Below, piece by piece: positions 1 through 58,795 of a stretch of 64,000 nucleotides of DNA. The notes under the pieces were generated by a model. That model was not told the DNA's origin, ran no database searches, and saw nothing but the letters and a program-made list of their open reading frames with translations. A program made the translations under genes and the position numbers. Source of the DNA: Eledone cirrhosa (lineage: Eukaryota); the NCBI GenBank assembly GCA_964016885.1, contig OZ024743.1, forward strand, positions 121,768,001 through 121,832,000, in the 5' to 3' direction. The stretch's first letter is position 1. Every line of letters starts with the position of its first letter.

Positions 1-2562
1 ATTGTAGATACATTTCCCTCAAATCACACTCCACCATCCTAAAAAAGGGAAGGACACACATTAGATAATGCAGTCCTGCATCACCACCACCCAATCCCTA
101 CAAAAAAATATAAAATAGATTGGTCGTGGTTGGAATTCGTTTGTTTGTGGTCTGCTTAATTATGGCTGACCTAGAACTTTATAACCATTGAAAAGAGATT
201 ATTAACCCTTTCCTTACCATATTTCAAATGAATTTCTATGATTTTCAAATAATTTTGGAGGGATTTAGTAATATAATTAATTTTTAAACTTTCAATGATT
301 TAACTAAGGTTCTTACATAAAGTTATGATGGAATGTTTTCACATAAATAAAAACACTTTAAATTAAACAGTTTTGCATCATAAAACCAGTTTTCAGTCTG
401 AAGTTCAAACATTGCTACAAATAGCAACATTAGCCGATTAAACTGTTAAAGTACTACAGCATGTAATTGGAAAACAGCAGTGTTTGGAAGTATCTGTATA
501 AATTGAAGTTGAGATATGAAAGAAGAACAGGTGAAATATATTTGGAAAGTCAAATAGCAGAGTGAATATATATATAAAATATATATAATGATCAGAGTGG
601 TTACAACAGCATCACAATTCTGATGATAGTGGCATGGATAACAAGGAAAAATCATACTACAACTACAAGGTGGATGGTAAAACCTGGACATTCCCTTGTA
701 GCATCAACTCTGCTTGACACTGCTGGAAAAGGTGTCAAAAGGTGCTGAAATCATTGAAAACTCCAGTTGACAGTTGATGAAAAAAATGTCTCGCTGTGTA
801 AACTGTATGAAGAATATATATGAAAGATTTATTGCCAAATATTCAAGTCTCAGCCACTTACTTATACTCTCTGCCACAATCACCCAATATTACATAGTGA
901 TGAAGACACCTGGTTATTATATGTATGCAATTGGTACAAGGTATTTGTCATCTGGGAATGTCTGCATTGCAAATATTGACTGTGGTGAATAAGTTTCCTC
1001 TCAAAATCTGCTTGTGTTAGCACGACTCTATAAATAAGTACAGGGTGCCTAAAACAAGCTCAAAGCGTTGTATGGACTGTAGGGAAATTATCAAGGGTAA
1101 ATCTGCAGGCTAAAATACCTATAACATCATAACTGGAAATAGCTGTCATGAATCACACAAGTATTTAAGACCATCTCAAATTCAGTTTTGCTCTCTTGTC
1201 TCTCTTTTCACACTGCTGGTCTCTGAGAGAGTTGACGGCTGTCACTCGATTGCAGCCGTCACTGATCATTAATCTTCAGCACGCTAGTAATTTTTATGAG
1301 TTGTTTCCCTTGACACTGCATTATCTATTAAAGGGAGATTACTTATATGGTGCATTTCGTTGCCTGCAACATGCTGAAAGTGAAGGTACTGCTGCAGTCA
1401 GGCCAGTACACTCAACTCAGTAAATCTGCACAAAGCAATATCTTATCTCTAACAACATCTCTGCATTCGTAAATTCCAACATATAACAACAAAATACTAT
1501 TATGAACATTACATTTAATCTGTTGACAAAATATTATTATAAACTATTTACATATTCTGGTTGTGTTATATTTTGCTACATGGCATTGTTGTATAGCATG
1601 CCAAATATAAAAATATAAAAATTAGCAATTCCGTTTTCCTTGTTGGTCTGTCTCAATTCATCGTGATCCTGATCATTTTTTCAACTACAACTCAGTGACT
1701 AACAACACAACTATGAGCAACACCACAACAACCAACCACATATTTGCTAAAATGGTATCTACCAGCATACTAAAATTACTGTCAAAGGATTATAGATACT
1801 TACTATCATTTGCTAATCACAGGATGCTATGGCACTCTAATTATCTTTAAAGTGTTTCTCTGTCACCACCACAATATCCAAATAAAGTATTTTTAATCTG
1901 GTGTTTTATCTGCTGAGAACTTTACCACATATTTTGGGGGAGATTATCAGATCAGACCAAGGAAACTATTTTTCCACTGATTTTTCTATTGCTGGCATAA
2001 CTCCTGGTAGAGGTGTCACTACTTCTCTGGTGACAGGAGGAAGGATTTGAACTCAGAATACACAGGGCTAGAACAAACAAAGCATCCCATCTAAAACCTT
2101 AACAATACTGCATATCCACCACCTATCATTGACCCTGAAAGGATAAAAAGCAATGTTGACCTTGGCAGGATTTGAACTGGAAATACAAAGGGCTAGAACA
2201 AATACTGAGGCATTTAATCGATAACTAGCAAAAGAAATTCTCCTAAAACTGTCATATTCTAATACTGCCAAGACTTCTTTAATGAGACAGCATTATATGC
2301 AATCTTTCTACCTTAATGAAGCCCATTATAAAAACCTTTTTCCTCACAAGCAGACATTAGACATTAAACAATGATGATGATGCACTTTCACCAAACATCT
2401 AATTTCTAACTGTACCATTCTGTAACAAATTCTTTAAAAATTAGGCCCAAATAATTTGTAAGGTTAGCCATCAAATCTTTTAACAAAATTTAGTTGTCTG
2501 AGAAGTAATTTGTCTGTTTTCTACTTCTCACAACCCAAATCTAGAAATTTACTTGCAACCTG

Positions 2563-3495
2563 ATCATCATCATCAGCATTTAGTGTCCATTTTCCACACT
2601 AGCATAGGTTAGACGAACTGTCCTGTTGTGAGACAAGCCAGGTCGGATGACTGTGTTTTGCACACACAGAACTGATTTTGGTTTGGTCTCTATGGCTGGG
2701 TGCCCTTCCTAATGCCAACCCCATTTTCAATAGTTACAGGGTGCTTTTTGTCATGACGCCTACACGACCACTTTACAGTGTGGGCTGGATGCATATCGTC
2801 ATGGCACCAAAATAACCACTTAATAGTGTGGATTGGGGACTTAGGTGGGGAAGATGCATATGGGAAGGCGGGTCTTCTGTATTACTATATAACGCCAGAG
2901 ATCACAGTCCTGTGTCATCACCTTTCAGAGGTGCAATTGTGCAAGGTCAGCTTTCATCACCTCATCCCAAGTCTTCCTACTCCATAGCTTCCATCGACTG
3001 AGCGCTCAGCACATTTTCATACAGCTGTCATCCTTCATACGCATCACATGTCCATACCAATGCAATCTCCTCTCTGGCACACTACATCTGATCCCTCTTA
3101 TGCTCAATTTCTTTCTCAGTTCATTTATGCTTTGCCGTTCATATATATTACTATTACACATCCATCAATGTATGGAACCTTCATTTCTTTCCAATCTTCC
3201 AGATCTCACTAGCATGCAATATTGCTGTTCATATACATGCATCATACAATCTGCCCTTCAATTTGAGGGGAAAACCTTTTGTAGTTAGCAGCAGTAGTAA
3301 TTCTCTTAACTTTCTCCAACCCATTCTCACTCTGGCTACTGTGCTTTTAGAACAACCTCCTGCAGTGTTAATTGGTCGCCCAGGTAACAGAATCTATCTA
3401 TTACTTCTACAAAACCCTCTAGGCATTTGCAGGAGCTTGTATCCTGTGAACTCTAGCTACTTATTGCACCTGTGTATCGGCCACATGTAAAACCT
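2563..3495 (-). mobile_element. Decayed RTE 3' end with tail repeat
   Basis: Reverse-strand similarity to 31300-32260 (WYGHV and VARVRMGWRK remnants), with a (CAT)n end. Confidence 0.75.
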
Positions 3496-4029
3496 ATGTT
3501 CTTTCCTTCATAAAAACGTTATTAGATGGGTTATATTCTCATTCATAATCTTTATTTCTTGCTGAATGATTTTCATGAACTCAGTTTTCTCATTTGGTGT
3601 GTTGATATTTTGAATTTACTTAGGATGTATGCATTTCTGTTTGTAAAGTTTGTTAATCTTTTTATACGCTGTTCTTTTCATATTTATCATTAACATTCAT
3701 TTTAATTTTTTGGCCTGTATTTTATTTTGTGGTAATTTCTCTACCTTAGTTATATCTTTTTAAATTATTCATTGTATGTTTCAATAGATATCTCATAGCA
3801 ATAGAGAGATATGAATAACAGTCCAAATCTTCTGACAAAATGTGAAATAATGATTAAGAACATCAACAACAAAACTATAGTTAAATAGTAGCTATATATA
3901 TGCAAACCAGTATGTATAATGCAACTTTTTTTTTGCATCAAAGAAACACTATGACATTTCTCTTTTCCATCAATGAGATTATATATTGTGTTAGTATTTG
4001 TTTGGCAAGATTCTTGATGAGAAGTCACA

Positions 4030-4830
4030 TTTCGTTCTTTCTTTTCTTATGCCCAGTTAGCCCTAAGAGGGTCACATTGGAAACAACTGTCACCAAATGA
4101 TCTGACTGGATCCCTAAATGAGACCAACTGAAGTTATAGATATTATCCAACCATCTTGCTGGTGGTCTACCTCTGGGTCTCCTGCTAGTTGATTTTACCC
4201 ATAGTATCTGTCCTGCGATTCTTTCATTATACAATCTAACCACATGCCTAATGCAGAGAACTAGCTACTCTACCTAGAGCAACCCCCTGATCTCCAAGCT
4301 ATGCACCTTATAAATTAATGAAACCCTATTTCAGTTGCTTGTATTCATGATTGTATTTTTTTTTTTACTACTATCTAAGATACATGTCCATAGGTAAGAA
4401 GTAGGCAAGAATAGCAAATTGAAGATAACACGTTTGGCTCTTACACCTACTTTCCTTCTGCTAACCAAGTGTTGAAGTTGGTACATTATTACACCAACTC
4501 CCGCAATTCATGCATCTAATTCAGCCTCCTGCCTCCCATCACTTGTGAAAACTGCATAAGATACTTGAACTTCTCCACCTGCTTCATTCTACTCACATAC
4601 GAAGCACACTGTACAGGCTTACTCTAGACGACAAATGTCTCGTCTTTGTAACACTGATTTTCATTTCTGCCTTGCAGCAATTGGCAGCAAACCTATCCAG
4701 TACGTGCCAGAAATCACCTTCTGATGAGTTAATTAACACCATGTTTTCTGTGAATATTAGCCAACCAATCCTACATTCGCTAATTCTGATAGCACTTCCA
4801 CCCTGGCTGCACATGTTAGTCTCTCACAAA
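4030..4830 (-). mobile_element. Decayed RTE-type (Expander-like) RT C-terminal fragment
   Basis: Remnants MKISVTKT, QVEKFKYL and RPRGRPPARWLD. Confidence 0.65.
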
Positions 4831-4865
4831 TATTGCTATACTTTGGGAGAGTCATGCTGCCAAAA

Positions 4866-5630
4866 ACACACACACACACCGATTGAGTTTCATTTTGCAT
4901 TTATTAATAGTTAGGTAATTGAGGGTGGTGGATTGGCAGTATCGGTTGGGCGTCAGACAACATGCTTTGCGGCATAGAGCTACGGCCCTTTACATTCTGG
5001 GTTCAAGTTCCGTCGAGGTTAGCTTTGTCTTTCATCCTTACAGGTTGATAAATAAAGCACCAGTAATGCATTGGGATCAATTTAATCGACTTTCCCCTCC
5101 CCCAAAATTGTTGGCCTTTTGCCTAAATCAGAAATCATTATTGGATTGGCAGTATCAATAGAGGGTCTGACGCCATGCTTTGCAGCAAAGAGTTACAGCC
5201 CTTTATGGTCTGAGTTCAAATCCCGCCGAGGTTAACTTTGCCTTTCATTCTTACGGGGTCGATAAAATAAAGTACAAGTAATGTACTGGGATAATTGCTG
5301 GCCTTGTGCCAAAAGTAGAAACACTTATTAGTCTAATCCATTCCTCGGTTGGTTTAGTAACCAGATGGTTATTTAATTATCATAGCTATTTCATCACACA
5401 TTCTGTGACCTCCCCAATGACTATTGTGACCCTCTGTGTCTTCTCTTTGTTTTGAATTTGTTCCAGTTATTTCACAGAGGGTCAAAATAGTGATTGAGAA
5501 GGTTACAGAATGTTTAGTGAAAGAGCTTTGACAATTAAACAACTATTTAGTGACAAAACTAACCAAAGAATTAACTAGCAGCCTGACTAATAATTAAACC
5601 AAAGTGAAACTCAACTGGTGTGTGTGTGTT
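4866..5630. repeat. Old palindrome related to the 62938 family, left arm interrupted by two tandem SINEs
   Basis: cacacattctgtgacc (5396) / ggttacagaatgt..gaaagagctttgacaat (5501-5535). Outer arms acacacaccgattgagtttca / tgaaactcaactggtgtgtgt. Confidence 0.55.
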
Positions 5631-6092
5631 TATATTGGCAGCATGACTCTCAAATAACAATTATATTGGCAAAATTAGTTGAGCATCGGAAAAAATGCTT
5701 TGCAATATTTAGTTATGGCCCTTTACATTCTGAGTTCAAATCCCGCCACTGTTAGCTTTGCTTTTCATCCTTATGGGGTTCGATAAAGTACCAGTAACAC
5801 ACTGGAGCCGATTTAGTCGACTTTCTCCTTCCCTTCAAATTGCTGGCCTTGTGCCAAATGTAGAAGCAATTATTTGTTTGAACCTTTAATATCTTAAAAC
5901 CATTCTTGCATTGTTCACAAATATGATAGTATATGGTAAAATTATATCACTAATTACCCAGTGATAGTACTAATCAACCTCATGATCTTACTGCGTATTG
6001 CAATGAATTTTCTTCATGAGAGGGAAAAATAAATCATTTATGAAAAAGTTCTCCTAAGAGCAAAAATTTTGAACATAATCTTTATCACTTAC

Positions 6093-6183
6093 CACTAACA
6101 TTCATCGATCTTATATATTCGTATTTATGACGTAAACTTCTGTAATCTTCAAACCATATCTGTTTCATTTGCCCATTTGTTTC
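6093..6183 (-). CDS. CTBS-like exon 7; the terminal exon was not found in this window
   Basis: Acceptor tttttag|GAA, donor GTG|gtaagt, 91 nt. Encodes ETNGQMKQIWFEDYRSLRHKYEYIRSMNVS(G), matching the GH18 motif QVWYDxxxSxxxKxxY....G. Confidence 0.93.
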
Positions 6184-13303: not shown

Positions 13304-13474
13304 CTTAATATTAAAATATGGGGCCAAATAAACAGAATTCCAGGTATTATTATTTTCATAATTCATATATTTTTGTGCTAATGTATTCATATCGATTTTT
13401 GTGCGAAAATGTTCATAATCACAGGTTTCTGATTCATTTTTCTTTTTTATAAAACATTGGTCATAAGGAGAACC
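13304..13474 (-). CDS. CTBS-like exon 6 (GC donor)
   Basis: Acceptor ttttcatttag|GGT, donor AAG|gcaagt, 171 nt. Encodes GSPYDQCFIKKKNESETCDYEHFRTKIDMNTLAQKYMNYENNNTWNSVYLAPYFNIK, matching chitobiase ..W....APYYNYK. Confidence 0.92.
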
Positions 13475-13976: not shown

Positions 13977-14083
13977 ACTCCCTTTAGGTTTAAAAATGTC
14001 GCAATCATAGACATAGCCATGCCATGGTACACTTAAAATAAATTTCTGAGGGGGAACTTCATTTGCCATGAATTCATCAAAAC
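13977..14083 (-). CDS. CTBS-like exon 5
   Basis: Acceptor ttctattctag|GT, donor AGT|gtaagt, 107 nt. Encodes (G)FDEFMANEVPPQKFILSVPWHGYVYDCDIFKPKGS, matching the GH18 motif PxKLVMGVPWYGYDYxC. Confidence 0.95.
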
Positions 14084-14639: not shown

Positions 14640-14811
14640 CTAACTCTAATTTAGTAAATGGAACTGTAGCTTGAGCCATACAATGTGTTTTTTCAGTGTT
14701 AAGAAAGCTTTCGGGGGTTAGCATAAAATAATCACAAATACTAAGCATTTTACTTATAAAATTGCACTGGGATTCATAACAAGGTGGGAACCAGTTGATA
14801 AGGCACAGAAA
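14640..14811 (-). CDS. CTBS-like exon 4
   Basis: Acceptor cttttacag|TTT, donor TTAG|gtaagt, 172 nt. Encodes FLCLINWFPPCYESQCNFISKMLSICDYFMLTPESFLNTEKTHCMAQATVPFTKLEL(G), which aligns without gaps to chitobiase VTFDVAWSP..C..CDFLFVMSYD..CIAAANAPY..G. Confidence 0.92.
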
Positions 14812-18032: not shown

Positions 18033-18689
18033 AAAATAACAATAGTATGTTGAAATCAAAATTGCTAAATGATATGATCAAAACAGATACATACATTTTA
18101 GGCAGTGTATTTAATTCACATTGTAATTTTAATGAAATAAAAATGCTTTCAGAGATATAGATATAAACAATTTTTAAATGCATTTAAAGTCCTGCAAATT
18201 ATATAGTCATTAACACATTTATATCAAGGCAGTGAACTGGCAGTTGTCAAGGCATTGGATAAAAATGTCTTGATATTTGTTCTGGTTCATTGTGCTCTGA
18301 GTTAACTTTGCCTTTCATCCTTTCAAGGTCAATAAATAAATTACCAATCCAGGGCGATTTCCTCATTTTATCTCTCTCCCTCTCTGAATGAAAGTACCAG
18401 TCCAGTACTTCTATCTCTCTCTCGCTTCATCTCCTCCTCTCTTCCTCTTTCTCTGGAAGAAATTAGCTATTATCCAACCTGGAGAAGGATGGGCTCTGCC
18501 AAATTTAAAATGCTCAAGACATGCCATGCATCATGACAACATCCCTACAACTCCATCAATAGTTAAGGGCCCTTTATTACTTTCAACATTTTTAGCACTG
18601 GGTTTTTATGGGGGGGGGGGGGTTCTTTACTGGAGTAATTAATTCTATAACTAGTTTTAGAGTTAAGATTGACTGAAATGTAAACTTAC

Positions 18690-18901
18690 AGATATATCAG
18701 CAGAAATGGAAACCAACTGAGATTTTAAATCTGATATCACACTGGTAATCTCAGTAACATTTTCTGCAGATATTTCTGATGTGAAGGTCTGGTGCAGATC
18801 TAGCAAAAAGATGTCTGCGAAGAAAATATTTGCTTTTTTTGTTTCATCAACTATCCATGCCTGAGTCAGTTGTCTATCATGAAATTTTTTAGGAAAATGA
18901 C
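18690..18901 (-). CDS. CTBS-like exon 3, with degenerate catalytic motif DIFLLDLH
   Basis: Acceptor tttttcag|GT, donor TCT|gtaagt, 212 nt, phase 1 to 0. Encodes (G)HFPKKFHDRQLTQAWIVDETKKANIFFADIFLLDLHQTFTSEISAENVTEITSVISDLKSQLVSISADIS, aligning to chitobiase ..ASWIAQKLNLAKTQYMDGINIDIEQ.. Confidence 0.92.
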
Positions 18902-19059
18902 CTGAAAAATAAAAAAATAAAAAAATGATATATATATATTTTACATTAAAATTGATGAAAACTCGATTTTGATGTCAGTACTTAATTGGTGCTACTGCTT
19001 CCCGCAACCACCAGCCCATCTGAGAGGTCAGTAGTACCAATTAAGTACTAGCTTGGAGA

Positions 19060-20393
19060 AATGGAAACGCAACCATGCCTCTCCTGGTCTTGATGGTGTT
19101 ACGTACCTGCTTCTAAAACGTGGTGGGTACTTCCTTCTGCACCAACTATCACACTTCTTCCAATTCTGTCTGAACAACGATGCTACTACAGAACAGTGGA
19201 AAACTGCCAGTGTCATTCCTCTGTTCAAAAAGGGTGACCGCACATCACCTGTGAACTATCGTCCAGTCAGTCTTACTAGCTGCATTGCCAAACTGATGAA
19301 ATCCTGTGTCAGAGAAACACTTAGGAACTTTTGGAACTGTCACAGTCTTATCCGGCCCTCACAATTTGGATTTATCCCGAACTCCAGCTGCTGTGATCAA
19401 CTTATCGAGTTTCTTGAAGACATCACCCGGATCACTGATGGCGGCTCATGGGTGGATGTTGTTTACCTTGACTTTGCTAAAGCTTTCAATTCTGTGCCAC
19501 ACAAAAGGCTTATGGCAAAACTCTCTGCAATGGGTGTGAAGTATGATCTTTTTAACTGGTTGAAGTCCTTCATTCTCAGTTGAAGAGAGGTAGTCATGGT
19601 TCTAGGGCAGCATTCCTCACCATATGAGATGTCATCTGGTGTACCACAGGGATCTGTTCTTGGCCCCCTTTTGTTTGTGGCATATATTAATGACATAGAT
19701 GCCAACTTAAAGAATGCCACAGTACTGAAATATGCAGATGACATCAAGCTGCACCTTGAGATAAAAAGGACAGATCCTGAACACTATAGATCTTGCCTGC
19801 AATCTGACCTGGACACAATGCAACAACGGATCACAGACTGGCAACTCAAGCTAGCTGTGGACAAGTGCACCACCATGCATTTTGGGAGTAAAAACCCAGC
19901 GTCCACATACTCCCTCCACAACACTAATATCAAGAAGTCTTCTTGTGAACGTGACCTGGGCATTACGGTCAACAGCGATTTGCGTTGGACGAAGCACGTC
20001 TCTAAAATTGTCAAGAAGGCAGAGGGTGTCTTAGCATCTTTCAGCAAGACCCTTGTGAACCCCTCTCCAGCTATCTATTTAAAGCTGTATATAGCTATGG
20101 TGCGGCAACACTTAGAATTTGCATCACCAGTCTGGAACCCCTATCTTGCTCAGAACATTGACCGCCTGGAAACTGTTCAGAGACGTGCAACCAAGCGAAT
20201 ACCCTCTGTCAGGCATCTACCATACTCTGAACACCTTGCTTCCCTGGGCATGGATACATTGAAGCTCCGACGTCTGGCAACTGACTTGGTAAACACCCAC
20301 AAAATTATTAACCATCTTGCCAACAACAACCCTGAGTACCTTTTTGATTTCCATGTGTCTAACACACATGGGCATGCCCATAAAGTCAGAAAA
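19060..20393 (+). mobile_element. CR1 LINE RT fragment
   Basis: ORFs 19053-19583 and 19596-20396 are nearly identical to the RT at 37160-39115, with one in-frame stop. Confidence 0.93.
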
Positions 20394-29866: not shown

Positions 29867-30247
29867 TATATACCACCCCTTTCTCTGTAAAGTTATGTTG
29901 GTACCACAACATCCAGTCCTAAATAAATGAGGTCGTGTAGGTGTCACAACAAAAAAATACACAGTCCACGCTGTAATGTGGCCGTCTAGGTAACACAGTA
30001 AAAACCTCCCAGTCCACACTGTAAATGTGCTTGGTGTTAGGAAGGCCATCCAGCCGTGGAAAACCTGCCAGACAGTCCCATACAAGCGAGATGACCAATC
30101 TTGCTTCAAGTGGAACAATTCCCGTCTAAACCCATGCTAGCGTGGAAGATAGATATTAAACAATGATGATGATACAAAATATGGAAGTCATTACGGCTCT
30201 CACTTTTTGTAAAGATGGCTGTGTATATTTGTTATTTATATTTGTAA

Positions 30248-32267
30248 TAAGTAAGGCAATCAAAGATATGAAGACGGGTAAGGCGGCTGTGCCTTTGGAA
30301 ATAGTTGCTGAAATGCTGAAAGCATCTGGAACGGTGGGACACACTATGGTCACCTGGATAGTAAACCAAGTAATACAGAATGGGGTCGTACCGAAGGACT
30401 GGCATAGCAGCATCATCATTAACTGCTACAAGGGTAAAGGAGATGCCCTAGATAGGGGAAACTATAGAGGCATTAAATTAATTGACCAGGTCATGAAGGT
30501 CACAGAAAAAGTAATAGCGCAACTAATCAGAGAGCGAATTGATCTGGATGAAATGCAGTTCCGGTTTGTGTCAGGTAAAAGTACCACAGACGCTCTTTTC
30601 ATTGTACGACAACTACAGAAGTACCTAGCAAAAAGTAAACCCCTATACCTAGCTTTTGTTGACTTGGAGAAAGCCTTTGACAGAGTCCCACACCCCATTA
30701 TCTGGTGGGCTCTCAGAAAACTAGGTGTTGATGAATGGCTTGTGAGAGCTACACAAGCCATGTATAAAGAAAGAGTCAGCAAGGTTAGAATTAACAACGA
30801 ATATAGTGAAGAGTTTAGCGTAAAAGTTGGTGTTCATCAGGGCTCCGTCCTTAGCCCCCTCCTATTTATTATTGCCCTTCAGGCTATAACAGAGGAGTTC
30901 AAGACCGTATGCCCATGGGAACTCCTATACGCTGATGATCTAATGCTTATAGCTGAATCAATGGCTGAACTAGAGAAGAAATTCCAAACATGGAAGCATG
31001 GCCTAGAATCAAAAGGCCTTAAAATTAACCTGTCTAAGACTAAAGTTCTAGTATGTAGGAAGGAAAATAGGGCACTGGTCCCATCTGGGAAATGGCCATG
31101 CTCAGTGTGTAGGAAAGGAGTAGGCAGAAATTCCATTTTATGTCCCAAATGCAAAGTATGGGTGCATAAAAGATGTAGTGGGATCACAGGTAAGCTAACT
31201 AAGAATATAGATTTTATATCTGGCCGGTGCTCAGGTGCAAAAAGTAGCAGCAAGTGCCCACAGAATACTAGCTCATTCCATTGCACAGATGGTTCTATAG
31301 AAATAGTGGACACCTTCCGTTACCAGGGTGACAAAATCAACAGTGGTGGAGGGTGCTCTGAAAGTACAGTAGCTAGAATCAGAACGGGATGAAAAAAGTT
31401 CAGAGAGCTTATGCCACTCTTGGCCGCTAAAGATTTCTCTCTAAAAATGAAAGGCAGGCTGTATGATGCCTGCATATGAACAGCAATGTTACATGGCAGT
31501 GAGACTTGGGCATTGTGTGAAGAGGATCTATGCAGACTGGAGAGGAATGAAGCTTGCATGCTCCGTTGGATGTGTAATAGTAATATACGTGAACGGCAAA
31601 GCATAAATGAACTAAGTGAGAAATTAGGAATAAGAGGGATCAGATGCTGTTTACTTAAGAGAAGACTACGTTGGTATGGTCACGTGATGTGCATGAAAGA
31701 CGACAGCTGTATAAAAAAGTGCAGGGCGATCAAAATAGACGGTTGCCACGGAGTAGGCAGACCCAGAAAAACCCGGGACGACTTGATAAATTCCGACCTC
31801 ACACACTTACACCTCTCCAAGACAATGTCACTGGACCGAGATCTTTGGCGCTAGGCAGTAATACAGAAGACCCGCCTTGCCTAAGTGCAAAGCGAAACCT
31901 ACAGTCAGTAGGCACCTCTTACTAAAATACACCCCCGTCCCACTACCGCCACCCGATCCACACCACCCCTTTCGATGTAAAGTTATGTTGGTACCACAAC
32001 ATCCAGTCCTAAATAAATGAGGTCGTGTAGGTGTCACGACAAAAAAACACAGTCCACGCTGTAATGTGGCCGTGTAGGTAACATGGTAAAAACCTCCCAG
32101 TCCACACTGTAAACGTGGTTGGTGTTAGGAAGGGCATCCAGCCGTAGAAAACCCGCCAGACAGTCCTATGCGAGCAAGACAACCAATCTTGCCTCAAGCG
32201 GGAAAATTCCCGTCCAAACCCATGCTAGCGTGGAAGATGGCCGTTAAACGATGATGATGATGATGAT
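30248..32267 (+). mobile_element. 5'-truncated RTE-clade LINE (RT, PHD-like finger, C-terminus) with (GAT)n tail
   Basis: ORF 30163-31392 has NYRGIKL, AFVDLEKAFD, GVHQGSVLSP and LYADD. ORF 31486-31854 has LRWYGHV..GRPRKT. Confidence 0.93.
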
Positions 32268-36189: not shown

Positions 36190-39100
36190 CAAGAAGGCTG
36201 GTGAAACGTGGAAGAGAGATACCAGCTGGTCTGAGTGTGATCTACCCGCAATAACTGGCAATGTAAAAACTGCTACAACTCTGGGAAACTAAACCAGAAC
36301 AACCTGCCACCCTCTACACACCATCATAAACTGCGAGCAGGGTACAAATTGTTGTCCTTAAATGCTCGCAGTTTATGCAACAAGATACATCTGTTCGAAT
36401 CCTACGTCAGAAGCATCGACCCTGACTTCATCACAGTCACGGAAACATGGGCACATTCCTTACTCTGTGATGGGGTTTTCATCATTACTGGGTACAACCT
36501 TTTCCGCAAGGACCGCATTAACCGCCGTGGTGGTGGTGTGATGGTCTACGTTCGTTCAAACTTTTCGGTAATTCCTTGCGTTGATTTGAACGAATCACAG
36601 GAAGAAGTTTTTTTCTGTGACATACGTATGACCATGTCAACACTTCTGCTTGGTGTTGTTTATCGACCCCCAAACTACCATCAGGACACACAGCTTTGCG
36701 ATATCCTCAGAGTTGCTGCCAAGAAAACAGCCACTTATGTGTTTATTGCAGGTGACTTCAATCATCCTGAGATCGATTGGGAAACCTTTCGTTGGCCACA
36801 GGGTGCAAACGATTTCCTTGAACTAGTGCTGGACTCAAACTGGTCACAAGTAGTCACCTCTCCAACAAGAGGTGACAACACTTTGGACCTGATCTTCACC
36901 ACTACTCCTGAAGTGGTTATCAGTTGTACTACTGAGGAATCTCTAGGCGACTCTGATCATGCTATGATCATTGCCAATCTGGCACTTGAGGGCAGCAACA
37001 AAAACCAGGGCCATCTCCAATCTGCTTGCTTTGATTGGAAGAGGGCGGATTGGAACTTGTACTGCACTGAGCTACAGCGCCCAAACTGGCATGAGATGTA
37101 TAACTCTGGAGATGTGAACTCTATACTCCAGAGCATCCTGGACTCAATATGGATAGCGTGTGCAGCATCAGTGCCACGGAAGCGGAAAAATAACCACCCC
37201 AAAAGTGCAATCTGGGAAACTTCAGCGGTCCGACTTGCCAGGAAAGAACGTCGGAACGCTGAACGGGAATATAAACTGCATAGATCAGATGCCAACAGAA
37301 AAAAAGTGGAATAAATCTTCTAACCATCTCAAGCAAGTGACAAAGAAGGCAGTGCTTGAATTTGAACAGTGCATCGCAACCAATCCTGACAGTAAGGTGT
37401 TCTGGAAATATGTTCATTCAAAGCAGAGACCTCACTCTCCAGTTGGTCCTCTTCGCAATCCCCACACAAGCCAGATCACTGACGATCCCAAGGAATGCGC
37501 AGAACTCATTGCTGAGTGCTATGCAAGTATTTTTACTGTTGAAGACCAGAATGTACCATCTCCACCATCTCTAACATCAAATTCCATAACAACTATGGAA
37601 TTTACACCTGCAATGTTGCGACGTCACCTTAAGAATAAGCGCAACTATGCCTCCCCTGGTCTTGATGGTGTGACATACCTGCTTCTCAAACGTGGCGGGG
37701 ATTTCCTTTTGCGCCAGCTTTCTTTTTTCTTTCAATACTGTCTCAGCAATGGTGCTACTCCGGAGCAGTGGAAAACTGCCAGTGTCATTCCCCTGTTCAA
37801 AAAGGGCAACCGCATGTCACCTGTCAACTATCGTCCAGTCAGTCTTACTAGCTGTATGGCCAAACTGATGGAATCCTGTGTCAGAGAAACACTTTGGAAC
37901 TTCTGGAGCTCTCACAGCCTCATCCGGCCCTCACAGTTTGGATTTATCCCTAACTCCAGCTGCTGTGATCAGCTTATCGAGTTTCTTGAGGACATCACCC
38001 GGATCACTGACAGCGGCTCATGGGTGGATGTTGTTTACCTTGACTTTGCTAAGGCTTTTAATTCTGTGCCACACAAAAGACTTATGGCAAAACTCTCTGC
38101 AATGGGTGTGAGGGATGATCTTTTCGACTGGCTGAAATCCTTCATTCTCAGCCGAAAGGAAGTAGTCACAGTTCTAGGACAGCATTCTTCACCATATGAG
38201 ATGTCATCTGGTGTACCACAGGGATCTGTTCTTGGTCCTCTTTTGTTTGTGGCATATATTAATGACATAGATGCCAACTTACAGAATGCCACGGTACTAA
38301 AATATGCAGACGACATCAAGCTGTACCTTGAAATCAAAAGGACTGATCCTGAAATTTACAACTCTTTCCTACAATCAGACCTGGACACAATGCAGCAATG
38401 GATCACAGACTGGCAACTGAAGCTGGCTGTGGACAAGTGTACCACCATGCATTTTGGAAGGAAAAATCCAGCGTCCACATACTCCCTCCACAACACTGAC
38501 ATCAAAAAGTCCTCTTGTGAACGTGACCTGGGCATTACTGTCAGCAACGATTTGCGTTGGACAAAGCATGTCTCTAAGATTGTCAAGAAGGCCGAGGGTG
38601 TCTTGGCATCACTCAGCAAGACCTTTGTTAGCCGCTCTCCAGCCATCTATTTAAAACTGTATACAGCTATGGTGCGACCACACTTGGAATTCGCATCATC
38701 AGTCTGGAACCCCTATCTTGCTCGGAACATTGACCTCCTGGAAACTGTTCAGAGACGTGCAACCAAGCGCATACCCTCCATCAGACACCTACCATACTCT
38801 GAACGCCTTGCTTCCCTGGGCATGGATTCATTGAAGCTCCGACGTCTGGCAATGGACTTGGTGAATACCCACAAAGTTTTTAACCATCTCGCCAACTGCA
38901 ACCCTGAGCGCCTCTTTGATCTCCATGTGTCTAACACACGTGGACATGCCTACAAGATAAGAAAACAGCACAGCTCCCATGACTTTCGCAGACATTTTTT
39001 CACGCTCAGAGTTGCTGAAGCATGGAACAAACTGCCTGCGTCAATTGTTAGCTGCCGAGACACTGCATCCTTTAAGACACTCATGCTTCCCAAAATACGC

Positions 39101-39393
39101 CAAAACTACACCTGATGTACCCCTTCCATACACATGCACACATGTGTGTATCATGACTCGTGCACTGTTCATTTTACTGATGTTTGTGCATTGCCCTATG
39201 TACTGTACATGCACTTTTTTGATGAGTTGTGGTGCACCTGGGCACTGTGCACAATATTTCGTTATTGTTATTATATCATGACTCATACACTGTTTATTTT
39301 CCTGACATTTGTACATTGTTCTATGTACTATACATGCACCTTTGATGAGTTGTAGTGCACCTGAGCACTGTACACAATAATTTCATTATTATT
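36190..39393 (+). mobile_element. CR1-clade LINE with nearly complete ORF2 (APE + RT) and 3' UTR ending in (ATT)n
   Basis: ORF 36349-37314 has APE motifs (LNARS, TETW, GDFN, LDL, SDH). ORF 37160-39115 has RT motifs (YRPVSL, DFAKAF, GVPQGSVLGP, YADD, FFTLRVAEAWNKLP). One frameshift at the A7 run 37299-37305. The 3' UTR is partly duplicated. Confidence 0.95.
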
Positions 39394-42928: not shown

Positions 42929-43079
42929 CAGTGAAGCCATATCTGCGTCCTTTTAAATGAGTATAGCACATCAAGGTTACGTCAGGATCATTATCACTGA
43001 TTACACTGGATATTGACAACCAATTCCAATGCTTCCAGGTTTTCCTTGGTTCATTATAATCATCTGATATAACATACAC
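42929..43079 (-). CDS. CTBS-like exon 2
   Basis: Acceptor tttttaatag|GTG, donor ACTG|gtaaaa, 151 nt. Encodes VYVISDDYNEPRKTWKHWNWLSISSVISDNDPDVTLMCYTHLKGRRYGFT(G), matching chitobiase VFVF..KTWKSYDWSQITTV..D..LMCYAHSKG. Confidence 0.92.
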
Positions 43080-46831: not shown

Positions 46832-47099
46832 TATATATATATATCTTTAGGTTTGTTGGTTCACCACTGGATAGAACTGGTCATTCCGTATGGTCAATCC
46901 TGGTGTAATATTGTGAAGAGTACTCAACGCAGTGCAGTTCACCCATCTTCGTTTGTGTAGTTGGTGGTGCGAATACGGAGTTAATTATAAATGAAATAAA
47001 ATAACAGGAGGCTGGAAATGAAATAAAATAACAGGAGGCTGTCTCTGTCTCTGATTTTTCGGACCCATGGTTTTTTACATATTCCTTTGTTATATTCCA

Positions 47100-47157
47100 A
47101 TACCTGATGATATCACCGGATTCATATGGAACCTGGTCATTGAAATGATCATAGTAT
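47100..47157 (+). ncRNA. Type I hammerhead ribozyme motif
   Basis: ATAC-CTGATGA-[31-nt imperfect stem II]-GAAA-T-gatc-ATA-GTAT. Stem III is palindromic (ATGATCAT) with an AUA triplet, and stem I is 4 bp. Confidence 0.65.
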
Positions 47158-47241
47158 AATAAACCTTTCAAGGATTTACACAAGTCCAGCCTGCTGTTAT
47201 TTTATTTCATTTATATATATATATATATAAAGATAAAAATA

Positions 47242-52033: not shown

Positions 52034-52198
52034 CTCTTTTCTTTCGTGTTTCAGATGATCTCCATTTGGTACTCGAAGACACTGGTACTCTTCTTCACAT
52101 GGACACTCCTTCGATGGTATTTTAGTACTATCACAGCATAGTATTCCCACAAGTAAAATTATTATTGAAAATAGATATTTACTTGATGATTCAGTCAT
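52034..52198 (-). CDS. CTBS-like (GH18 di-N-acetylchitobiase-like) gene, coding exon 1: signal peptide and CPC motif
   Basis: ATG at 52198 gives MTESSSKYLFSIIILLVGILCCDSTKIPSKECPCEEEYQCLRVPNGDHLKHERKE (55 codons). It has a hydrophobic signal peptide and a C-P-C-x5-C motif like the chitobiase N-terminus (DCPCPEPELC). It ends in phase 0 at GAG|GCTAGT, a putative GC donor. Confidence 0.85.
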
Positions 52199-52436: not shown

Positions 52437-52496
52437 TGACGTCATATCAGTTGACTAATGGCTGGGACAGACACAGTTTACCTACTCTTACTTCCG
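52437..52496. promoter_or_regulatory. Candidate proximal promoter sites of the CTBS-like gene: CRE (TGACGTCA) and ETS-type core (ACTTCCG)
   Basis: Perfect TGACGTCA at 52437-52444 and ACTTCCG at 52490-52496, about 240-300 nt upstream of the ATG. Motif matches only. Confidence 0.35.
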
Positions 52497-54319
52497 TAAC
52501 TTAAATTTAATGTATACATCTATAATTAGTTGAATAAAACTTGTTTCTGAGCTGTTATTGGCAACGCTTGCTTAAAAACAAAAACAAAAAAGCAGTTCTA
52601 GAACTCTCGCGTTTTATTTTGGAGGTTTTAATATTACAATAATATTTTACTTCATGTTTTAATTCTACATTTCAGGATATACCTGTAATATATTAACGTT
52701 CTCACCTGTAACAATCACCTTTCGCTTTCTTTAATTAAGTCAAACATTAAGATGATTCTTTTTCTTTTTGTACCATATTTTAAAATTTAGATTATATTTG
52801 ATGCCATCAATAATAGGATTGACATTTAATGTGTTAAAGTTTATATTAACATTATATTGATTTTTAATAACATTTACAGCTCATGGGGGGGGGGGTCGAG
52901 AGTATTTTAATGATAGGGTCCCCAATCCTGTCACGAAAAGAAGTGTTTTGCTCAAGAATACACCCTTTTTCCGGTCCAGGAATTGAACTCACAATCTTAT
53001 TATCCTGAGTCCAACCTTCTAGCCACCAGGCCACCTGCCTTCACTTGAGTTATAAATACCAGAAAATGAACAGGTGTGCTAAAAATATTTATTTGATTAT
53101 GAATCATTCTTCTTTAAAAGGAAGTAGATCCCTCATATGGGACGCCACCTGCTGCGACACGTTCTCCGCCTCCAGCTTAGTCGCTTCGGCCACAAACCCC
53201 GGCATCGCAGAAGAACGTAAAATAAACAAATATTGGGGTTTGTCAGGCCGCTTCCTCTTCGTACCGGTCCCCGTCGAGACCTCAGGTGTACTGCCGAGCT
53301 CCTCCGCAAGATCGGAGCATCGGCGGCTCGTCTGAGGAAGGGCCCTGCGATGTCACTGGCCATCGTCCGAGGGAATGTTTTTACCGTCTTGTCCGCGGGG
53401 CGCAGCACTCCTTCCCCCTTGCCCTAGGCCCAAAACCCAGTCACCCTCCCCTTCACCCCTCCCTTCTCTTCTGCGACGTCAGAGCTCTTGCCACCCCCTC
53501 CCTTTCCCGTTCTTTTTCTTCTATCTTTCTCTCTTTTTTTTCTCGATATTTCCCTATTCTTTCTTTCCTTTTGTTTCCCCCCTTTTTTTCTTACTTAAGG
53601 TTTGTTTTTGGCTTTTGAATACATTTTCTTCTCTTATTTACCCTTTCATAGATAAGTAAAAATAAACGGTAAACCCAGTAAATGTGAATCAATCATTATA
53701 ATACGCTGTGTAGGTGTGTGTGTGTGTTGGTGAGGAGGGTGATATTTGGACACGCTGCGGGATGAAATACCAGACCTGGCAAAAGACGGGGGAATTCAGT
53801 AGAGTCAACGGTCATCCAAATAATGTGTACATGTGTGTGGGTGTGTCTTCTATCTATATATACTTGTATATGCATTTTAAATTTCTCATTTTTCATTCTT
53901 TTTATCTTCTAACATTTTTTTTAACTTGTCATGCTTGGTCACCTTTGGCCCGTGAGGATAATACAACTAATGAGGTTCTGACTAAGAAGGAGTAGGGATC
54001 CCACAGAAGGTGTTTGGTGCGTGTGAAGCGAAGTTTGTGGTTGTTGTTGAAGAAGATAAATACGACAAATACTATAATTTTCGTTATATATATATAACTT
54101 TATTCCACTTGAGTTAAGAGGGAAAAGAATCTGTGTTTATTATGCTACGCAATTACAAAGTGACAAGTTGTTTCAGGATGTACATACTAGCATATGTAGT
54201 AGTAATCTCGCAGTGCAAAGGAGGTGTATGATTCTGTGTGTTGTAATTGATATGCCGATGGAAGAATTGCTGTAGGGCCCTTGTCGACACGGCTGATTCT
54301 TTATTTTTATTTATTTATT

Positions 54320-57300: not shown

Positions 57301-58090
57301 TTACACATCGCCTTTGTAGGCTTCACCAAGGCTTTTGAGAGCTACTCTTCGAAATTCTGAGAAAGCTTGGCTGTCCAGTATATATATTCCGTCTATATTC
57401 AAATATGAATCATAGGCTTATTATAGATGGCGAATTGTCAAACACTATTAGCTACAACAGTGGGGTGAAGCAAGGCTGTAAACTTGTCCCAACACTGTTT
57501 GGGCTGTAGCTACTGTATTACTCTTTATAGCCTTCAAAGTAGGCGATATTTTTTATCTCTGTCGCTTCAAGTCCAAGACAAAAATGGAGGCTCAATATGC
57601 TGATGACATCGCTGCTTTCTGCAATGATCCCATTGTTCTACAGCAGCTGTTATCTACATATAACACAGTTTCATTGAAAATGAGCCTCCGAATCAACATT
57701 AATAAGACTGGAACAATGAGTGTCGGAGAGCAAGTTGGTTTTTTCATTGATGGGCAAAAACTCAGCAGAGTGGAACGCTTCAAATATCTTGGCAGCTATG
57801 TCACCAAAAACTGTAAACTACATGAAGAACTTAGTGCACGTATTGAAGCTGCCTCTTGTGATGTGGGTAAACTAAGAGTGAGAGTCTTTGACTCCAGGGA
57901 ACTGACTTCTAAGACTAAGCTTAAAGTTTATAACCACTGTATGGCTCCTCTCTTGTCGTATGGAAGTAAGACGTGGACTCTCCATCGTTACCACATAAGA
58001 CAGTTAACAACAGTTCAGCAACGACACCTTGGGTTTATTCTCAACATTAAATGGGACCACTTTGTCACAAACTGGAATGACTGCTTGGAT
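54320..58090 (+). mobile_element. Decayed RTE (BovB-like) LINE, APE + RT, interrupted by a solo LTR
   Basis: TWNVRTL, IDICTLSEV, DFNARVG, QLDHVL, KSPGSDGI, GVKQGC, QYADD and FKYLGS motifs, with many frameshifts. Confidence 0.85.
54992..55729. mobile_element. Solo LTR (738 bp, probably gypsy-type)
   Basis: Termini TATAACGGA...TCCGCTACA form an imperfect TG..CA inverted repeat, with TAGG duplicated on both sides. Removing it restores the RTE reading EIEKVG|IDICTLSEV. AATAAA occurs near 55648. Confidence 0.7.
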
Positions 58091-58795
58091 ATTCGGCTGA
58101 AACTCATCTTGTGAACTTGTTTACCCGTATCGGGACTCAGACAAGCATGTAGTGAAATCTATCCACACACTGACCCCCAAGTGACATCTAACAGGCATTT
58201 TGTAGGTTATTTCCTTTGGCGTCAGTTGTCTGAAGTAGCAGGTCATTTTAAGGTGAAAGCAAAAATAGGTTCTTAATGCAGTCGAACGGGAACCTTCCTA
58301 CGGTAAACACGGCAGAGTGTTTGCTCTGGTCGCCGACTGGAGAAGCATTTTTTTGTCTAGCCATCAAACTACTAGCCAGATGTAGTTCTTGGCAAAAATA
58401 CATCTCGAGCCTGCTTGTGGACAGGGCCACAAGAAATAACAGCCATCCCTTCTATAAGGCAAGTTACATTGTGTCGTTGCACGCAAACATATCTCACGCA
58501 CTTCTCCGCGCGCACAGTTTCTCCTTGTTTGTTGTTCATGCCTTTCGACTGTAACAAATGTCCAGTGTTTCCATCACTAAATAATATATAAAGGTAGCGG
58601 AAGTTTTCGTTCTTCATAGTGTGATCGGGGAAAATCACTTTCCACACGATATCAAACACTTTCGCTTTCCACAGATGTACACATTGATTAACTATCACAA
58701 TCATCTGCAACCAATACGAATCATCATCATCATTCATTCTTCTACTACGGTAAGAACTTCAATTTACAAGCACACACGCAAACTCCCGTTACAAG

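Follow-up and report, generated by a model that had tools for sequence, protein, structure and literature searches.

The window analysed here, 64,000 nucleotides of the Eledone cirrhosa genome, carries on its minus strand seven exons of a GH18 gene related to lysosomal chitobiase (CTBS), and the seventh intron leads to two further exons beyond its edge. The features are listed below; X4 is a sequencing run of a second sample that yielded a spliced contig, and C15 is another chromosome, which holds the related gene used for comparison.

52034..52198, minus strand: exon 1, coding part (ends in the same alignment column and phase as C15 exon 1)
42929..43079, minus strand: exon 2, region of barrel strands 1-3 (tblastn match to C15 exon 2)
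18690..18901, minus strand: exon 3, 212 nt, strand 4 (AG/GT ends; in the X4 spliced contig)
18792..18815, minus strand: degenerate catalytic motif D135-I-F-L138-L-D140-L-H142 (alignment in gap-free register)
14640..14811, minus strand: exon 4, 172 nt, strands 5-6 (in the X4 spliced contig)
14707..14718, minus strand: T208-P-E210-S211, replacing chitobiase M-S-Y-D after strand 6 (gap-free register)
13977..14083, minus strand: exon 5, strand 7 (in the X4 spliced contig)
13304..13474, minus strand: exon 6, insertion domain, with a GC donor (in the X4 spliced contig)
6093..6183, minus strand: exon 7, with a GT donor at its end and not terminal (the X4 contig splices onward)
1..6092, minus strand: intron 7, the part within the window, leading to two exons outside it
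G000:C4:121766792-121766640, minus strand: exon 8, outside the window (exon 7-8 joint supported by the X4 contig)
G000:C4:121754679-121754525, minus strand: exon 9, coding part, outside the window (putative exon 8-9 junction)

Splicing of this gene is documented by a single contig of 2306 nt from X4, whose sample belongs to the same study as the one behind three DNA runs (X1-X3). The contig joins exons 3-4-5-6 and exons 7-8 at splice sites, jumping 7.3 kb between exons 7 and 8, and accurately omits introns that bear repeat insertions; the exon 6-7 joint at the GC donor follows from the combined contig coordinates. None of the exon 3-6 joints occurs in the three DNA runs, and a genome search found no second copy of exons 3, 5 or 9. 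Because the contig is spliced and these exons have no second genomic copy, we judge that a transcript is its simple reading, although X4 is not on record as RNA; the expression evidence amounts to one contig from one study, and the sample may be that of the assembled individual. At its 5' end the contig has a further 365 nt, equal to exon 2, the coding part of exon 1 and a leader of 49 nt, which is a consistency and not a test of the putative exon 1-2 and exon 2-3 junctions. Exon 1 holds the start codon, a hydrophobic signal-peptide-like stretch and a C-P-C-x5-C motif, and exon 8 encodes strand 8 with Trp361, the last helix and a short stalk.

The original prediction described seven open, phase-compatible exons with good splice sites and a secreted product of 356 aa. 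The exons are indeed open and their phases compatible, and the frame stays open over 458 codons, uninterrupted by any stop or frameshift, for which random codons give a probability of 3e-10. The splice sites were borne out as far as the GT donors and the exon joints in the contig are concerned, but two donors are GC rather than GT, at window 52033-52028 (GCTAGT, a putative donor assigned from the homologous position in the C15 gene) and 13303-13298 (GCAAGT, supported by the contig), both on the minus strand; thus two of the eight introns begin with GC, where the homologous C15 introns begin with GT. The count of seven exons and 356 aa has to be replaced, since the GT donor of exon 7 is spliced to exon 8 and there are strong indications of a ninth exon, which would bring the product to 458 aa. 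Intron 7 has no counterpart in the C15 chitobiase. A candidate last exon near window position 98 (G-I-G-W-W-stop) was discarded because the X4 contig skips it.

Beyond exon 8, whose donor is a phase-1 GT, the contig has another 1035 nt, and their first letter, a one-letter overrun, matches that of exon 9. The next 48.6 kb contain 304 acceptor-like sites, 39 of them matching this overrun. Among the 39, exon 9 stands alone in two respects: its 19-residue hydropathy exceeds 1.6 (2.3; the next reaches 1.51), and a repeat lies within 30 nt of the contig-end distance. A high-copy repeat starts at exon 9 position 1006, and the unexplained 1035 nt end 30 nt inside it; with an assembly word length that we take to be k=31 for Logan, a repeat at this position would stop the assembly at 1035. 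Exon 9 also fits the phase, and three agreeing clues strongly indicate that it is the last coding exon. It encodes a Gly-rich transmembrane-type helix at about residues 410-432 with a basic flank, an acidic tail of 25 residues and a stop, so that the predicted membrane anchor depends on the putative exon 8-9 junction.

The nine-exon product of 458 aa has a hydrophobic N-terminus, a GH18 domain reaching to about residue 386, a polar stalk, the helix and the tail, with four N-glycosylation sequons on the N-terminal side of the helix. Judged by hydropathy alone, a signal peptide, a dead glycosidase ectodomain, a single helix and a cytoplasmic part are all in place, and the protein is predicted to be a type I membrane pseudoglycosidase. 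Its C-terminal extension occurs in none of the seven active chitobiases (0/7), all of which end about 20 residues or less past the last barrel helix; a chitobiase is thus expected to end just past the barrel with no membrane helix, which the window gene does not do. The secreted product of the original prediction gives way to one predicted to be anchored, because the transcript runs into exon 8 and exon 9, at its putative junction, encodes the transmembrane-type helix and the cytoplasmic-type tail. The predicted helix (L033:6677-6600, minus strand) shows repeated G-x-x-x-G spacing, a possible dimerisation surface. In the tail, D-K-D-M-V stands nine residues from the end and resembles D-V-P-M-V of SorLA as described in PMC13581114; as a sign of GGA/AP-type cargo sorting this motif is weak, since a DxxLL-like pattern appears in 9.5% of tail shuffles, and two acids followed by x-x-L/M at the very end, a pattern chosen post hoc, in 0.6%.

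Reading through the exon 8 donor (L054:1639-1554, minus strand; G000:C4:121766639-121766554) adds 28 codons that are absent from the contig, ends hydrophobic (hydropathy 2.12) and is followed by ATTAAA words. This hydrophobicity is matched at 2.4% of random intron positions, and the read-through is a possible alternative anchored or GPI-type C-terminus.

In the 64 of 100 flank open reading frames that were scanned, only retroelement domains and no neighbouring gene were found. Intron 2 contains a near-complete LINE (window 36241-39112, plus strand), in which an endonuclease frame of 357 codons and a reverse transcriptase frame of 652 codons overlap out of frame; additional RT fragments lie at window 30160-31389 and 57482-58111. 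Intron 1 holds an open frame of 106 codons (window 46884-47201, minus strand) whose first half has a protein-like composition and which has no Pfam match. A GC-rich stretch at 53100-53480, about 0.9 kb upstream of the start codon, was rejected as a promoter island and is a dispersed repeat with 3856 candidates, 40 of which were scored, mostly at 73-82% identity. A single CRE-type palindrome, TGACGTCA, lies at window 52437-52444, 240 nt upstream of the start codon, and does not exceed chance for the window (0.42 expected).

The protein has clear affinity to the chitobiases. A CTBS profile built from six database chitobiases scores 169.6 bits on it, against 7.1 bits for the best of 200 shuffles, and in tblastn the window protein matched C15 loci only (three hits), while all 30 chitinase loci failed to match at E<0.05. 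Each of the six introns of the C15 gene is phase-matched in the window gene, five in the same alignment column and one within an indel, and exons 3 and 4 have equal lengths in the two genes (212 and 172 nt). As judged from these sequence comparisons, the window protein belongs by descent to the CTBS branch of GH18; the chitinase-branch descent of chi-lectins was not found. CTBS profile, shared intron phases and spliced contig together uphold the central proposal of the original prediction, an intact, spliced GH18 pseudoenzyme derived from chitobiase.

The search for a separate active CTBS paralog, for which the original prediction had called, turned up one with an intact motif. The genome search with exon 5 led to the second locus on C15, a gene of seven exons (G000:C15:26102229 to about 26119723) that encodes 369 aa with intact DGVNFDIE and MSYD motifs and is 70% identical to the CTBS of O. 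bimaculoides (P0002) and 64% to that of Argonauta (A. hians, P0003), identities that place the genome among the octopods. Searching the genome with P0002 gave nine matches, seven at C15, one at the window gene and one unrelated; candidate paralogs at C1:6.15-6.27 Mb and C1:274.99 Mb were dismissed as a tandem repeat and a repeat-like unrelated frame, respectively. The window protein is 21-26% identical to each of the seven active chitobiases and no closer to those of octopods than to those of frog or coral. It sits on a very long branch, estimated at 3.2 to about 10 changes per site, and AU tests neither rejected nor established a clade with the octopod chitobiases (p=0.104) or a pairing with C15 alone (p=0.056). 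The tree gives no date for the duplication, which could be old, or else the copy may have evolved fast.

An exon-by-exon Pfam GH18 scan of the genome gave 95 matches, none of them in the window, and missed the C15 enzyme too; scanned singly, the exons of the window gene gave no GH18 match. The motif exons listed comprise 14 distinct ones, of which 13 keep the Glu, and L015 reads DGLDISWEY. An exon of the chitinase branch (L014, G000:C1:106989712-106989984, minus strand) reads FDGLDLCWLY, with Leu for Glu, and by its sequence is part of a separate classical chitinase-like protein. The 'chitobiases' of bivalve shells are GH20 proteins and unrelated, according to PMC7747718.

The motif that first drew attention lies within exon 3, where window 18815-18789 on the minus strand encodes D-I-F-L-L-D-L-H-Q. 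The codon CAC of His142, at 18794-18792, stands where the catalytic Glu of GH18 is expected and is two base changes away from any Glu codon; the chitobiase Asn is replaced by Leu, and Asp140 is retained. The alignment with active chitobiases is gap-free from Trp121 past His142, which fixes the register of the motif. Runs X1-X3 cover 18314-19094 with 0 other letters, and exon 3 is covered by the spliced X4 contig, likewise with 0 other letters, so sequencing error and editing to Glu are both unlikely; the His read from the sequence in the original prediction is confirmed, and its claim that editing cannot give Glu is supported. As described in a survey of seven molluscs, group A, that of the chitobiases, has the motif LDGXNXDXEX, Glu included (PMC7560691); at the positions of DGxNxDxE the window gene reads DIFLLDLH. 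Exons 3-6 showed no variants and unique intron DNA a handful, numbers too small to demonstrate selection.

The Met and the strand-8 Trp of GH18 have recognised active-site roles. In GH18 chitinases the Glu of DXDXE is the acid and Asp142, Tyr214 and Asp215 assist it, as described in PMC7143101. An AlphaFold model of P0002 (pLDDT 84.6), which matches GH18 structures, puts the residues of the motifs where strands 4, 6, 7 and 8 end. The original prediction was right that the Glu to His change is real, but it is not a lone change, 40 of 76 invariant columns being altered. These 76 columns are invariant in the seven active chitobiases, and the window protein keeps 36 of them, compared with 44 of 286 other columns in which it is identical to C15 (p=3e-8); each active enzyme, left out in turn as a control, keeps 76 of 76-91 columns. 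The residues changed from P0002 to the window protein, each invariant in all seven active chitobiases, are N126 to L138, E130 to H142, D167 to L180, M195 to T208, Y197 to E210, D198 to S211 and Y242 to H255, and those kept include D128 (D140) and W343 (W361, strand 8); Trp183, Trp254 and Trp314 are retained as well. With T208-P-E210-S211, a second set of catalytic and -1 subsite residues is gone, as read from the alignment. Exon 5 has P-W-H255-G where active chitobiases read P-W-Y-G/S, and the C-S-D-A-x-G insertion-domain loop of the active enzymes is lost in exon 6. Single-exon profile comparisons are individually weak (E 0.001-0.11), but for exons 3, 4 and 8 they reproduce the same registers without gaps.

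The losses are unevenly distributed. Where the invariant residue is Cys, Trp, Pro or Gly, 20 of 26 columns are preserved, and where it is polar, 11 of 33 (Fisher p=0.0014); the Cys and Trp pattern that the original prediction called conserved is largely kept, but not at every position. These substitutions make normal chitobiase activity of the window protein very unlikely. In the sugar-binding subsites, Trp361 and Asp140 are kept and the Tyr-Asp pair, Met and strand-7 Tyr are lost, a pattern that makes classical -1 subsite binding of sugar doubtful, although the two retained residues could still allow sugar binding. The barrel itself presumably still folds.

Searches beyond this genome returned little. 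A word-based protein search for orthologs, a weak method, gave 43 candidates for exon 3, none of which scored, and no candidates for exon 8; ESM Atlas gave no usable match to exons 3 and 4, and PDB sequences gave none to exon 3. In metagenome scans, none of 98 pattern matches to exon 4 was confirmed, and six of 103 to exon 8 were, all the same chance match of 23 residues, which at the one locus read out lies inside an unrelated frame of 391 codons; beyond it there was no match to either of the two GH18 proteins, that of the window and that of C15. With methods this weak, absence from other species is not shown. A catalytically dead or membrane-anchored CTBS paralog did not appear in the titles and abstract openings of the papers listed, which come from few subscription journals. 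According to a survey of animal GH18 proteins (PMC1945033), the family falls into three groups, namely chitobiases, chitinases/chitolectins and SI-CLP; non-catalytic members occur in the chitinase and CHID1 groups, and the chitobiases are described as conservative and non-expanding, with no expansion in vertebrates and three copies each in Dictyostelium and sea urchin.

We are largely confident that the window gene is an intact and expressed derivative of CTBS that is no chitobiase and is membrane-anchored. As to what it does, the reading that we favor by a modest degree of belief is that a duplicate of lysosomal chitobiase has become a non-enzymatic, single-pass receptor or cargo binder, located at the cell surface or along the endosomal-lysosomal pathway. 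The CTBS ancestor is described as lysosomal and acting on chitobiose (PMC13213659). The duplicate would have lost the catalytic residues while keeping the barrel, and the protein would consist of a signal peptide, a lumenal GH18 barrel, one helix and a short cytoplasmic tail. With a rebuilt groove and an added anchor, it could bind a ligand with its lumenal or outward-facing part and be transported, or signal, via partners. We speculate that this ligand is a protein or a non-chitin glycan, as with the dead GH1 domains of Klotho, and that the acidic tail recruits sorting adaptors. More tentatively, and with well under even confidence, the protein might be a receptor of octopods, perhaps of molluscs more widely, and a GH18 counterpart of Klotho, in which Asp140, His142, Glu210 and His255 line a groove with a new ligand and the tail sorts cargo between Golgi, surface and lysosome.

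A classical role as a chito-oligosaccharide lectin is probably not the answer. The protein might nonetheless be a tethered chi-lectin, with chito-oligosaccharides or the N-glycan chitobiose core as ligands and a role in pattern recognition or uptake, and for this speak the retained Trp361, Asp140, Trp183, Trp254 and Trp314. Against it, 22 of the 33 invariant polar positions are lost and the Tyr-Asp pair has become Glu-Ser; to our knowledge, the known chi-lectins keep this pair. In the reference enzyme, the pair (Tyr214/Asp215) is described as serving both catalysis and substrate contact (PMC7143101), whereas a chitobiose-directed ancestor (PMC13213659) and the induction of molluscan chitinase-like proteins in hemocytes, as reported in PMC5877582, fit a lectin. 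We regard such a lectin as unlikely, with perhaps a minor share of the probability. Smaller still is the chance of a rewired, membrane-bound enzyme with a new reaction, in which Asp140, His142, Glu210 and His255 coordinate a metal or the role of the acid has moved to Glu210. In the P0002 model these four residues do map to the C-terminal ends of strands 4, 6 and 7 or immediately beyond them, where GH18 active sites sit; yet about 78% of positions have changed, enough for such a cluster to appear by chance, and there is no ortholog that shows it conserved.

Equally improbable is a secreted chitinase-like growth or matrix factor, released as a shorter isoform or by ectodomain shedding. The signal peptide and the short polar stalk ahead of the helix would suit it, and shedding of the ectodomain of Klotho provides a precedent for a secreted form; however, the sole transcript contig uses the donor of exon 7 and departs from the genome at that of exon 8, and even the exon 8 read-through ends hydrophobic. 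A transcribed but decaying pseudogene, as the great length of the branch and the failure to find an ortholog might suggest, is scarcely credible for 458 open codons (3e-10 for random codons) with selectively kept structural residues, an intact signal peptide and helix, and accurate splicing across introns bearing repeat insertions.

With its predicted membrane anchor, the window gene would represent an independent origin of a GH18 pseudoenzyme with the layout of a receptor and, if this is true, both the first pseudoenzyme and the first receptor out of the chitobiase branch. Its strong divergence explains why the exon-by-exon Pfam GH18 scan missed it, and such a miss means that simple surveys could overlook genes of this kind. 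The ectodomain is concrete and expressible and may serve as a model for the change from hydrolase to receptor, and the importance of the gene hinges on its conservation across cephalopods.

Compared with CTBS itself (P0002, P0003 and the C15 protein), the window protein shares a 170-bit profile match, the signal peptide and CPC motif, and six intron phases; it differs in lacking the catalytic Glu, the Asn and MSYD, in two extra introns and in a C-terminal extension of about 70 residues that includes the predicted membrane helix. The chi-lectins (YKL-40, YKL-39, Ym1, the IDGFs and oyster CgClp1/2) and SI-CLP/CHID1 likewise have a GH18 barrel minus the catalytic Glu, and YKL-40, Ym1, the IDGFs, CgClp1/2 and SI-CLP/CHID1 are soluble proteins that have kept chito-oligosaccharide binding. 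The same is described for YKL-39 (PMC7828330), and CgClp1/2 are the oyster's pseudoglycosidase counterpart (PMC5877582), yet these proteins belong, according to PMC1945033, to the chitinase or CHID1 groups and not to that of chitobiase, and the window protein differs further in being predicted to have a membrane anchor and in a groove that has been altered more extensively. The analogy to the lectins YKL-40 and IDGF drawn in the original prediction holds for the absent catalytic Glu and is weakened by the loss of Tyr-Asp and other -1 subsite positions. On these sequence grounds, the window protein is neither a chitobiase enzyme nor a chi-lectin of the chitinase branch.

Inactive glycosidase-like proteins at membranes are found elsewhere. 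The CHIL proteins of C. elegans are inactive and have an N-terminal membrane helix. They are chitinase-like animal proteins with a non-digestive role in defence, as described in PMC10523662. Tobacco CHRK1 is described as a plasma-membrane protein with an extracellular chitinase-like domain that lacks the Glu (PMC10573068), but it originates from plant class V chitinases and carries a cytoplasmic kinase, whereas the window protein has only a tail of 25 residues. Klotho is a single-pass protein with a short tail. In alpha- and beta-Klotho, inactive glycosidase domains act as parts of receptors that bind protein motifs (PMC7828330); their tandem GH1 fold has no homology to the GH18 barrel, and the likeness to the window protein is one of functional analogy only.
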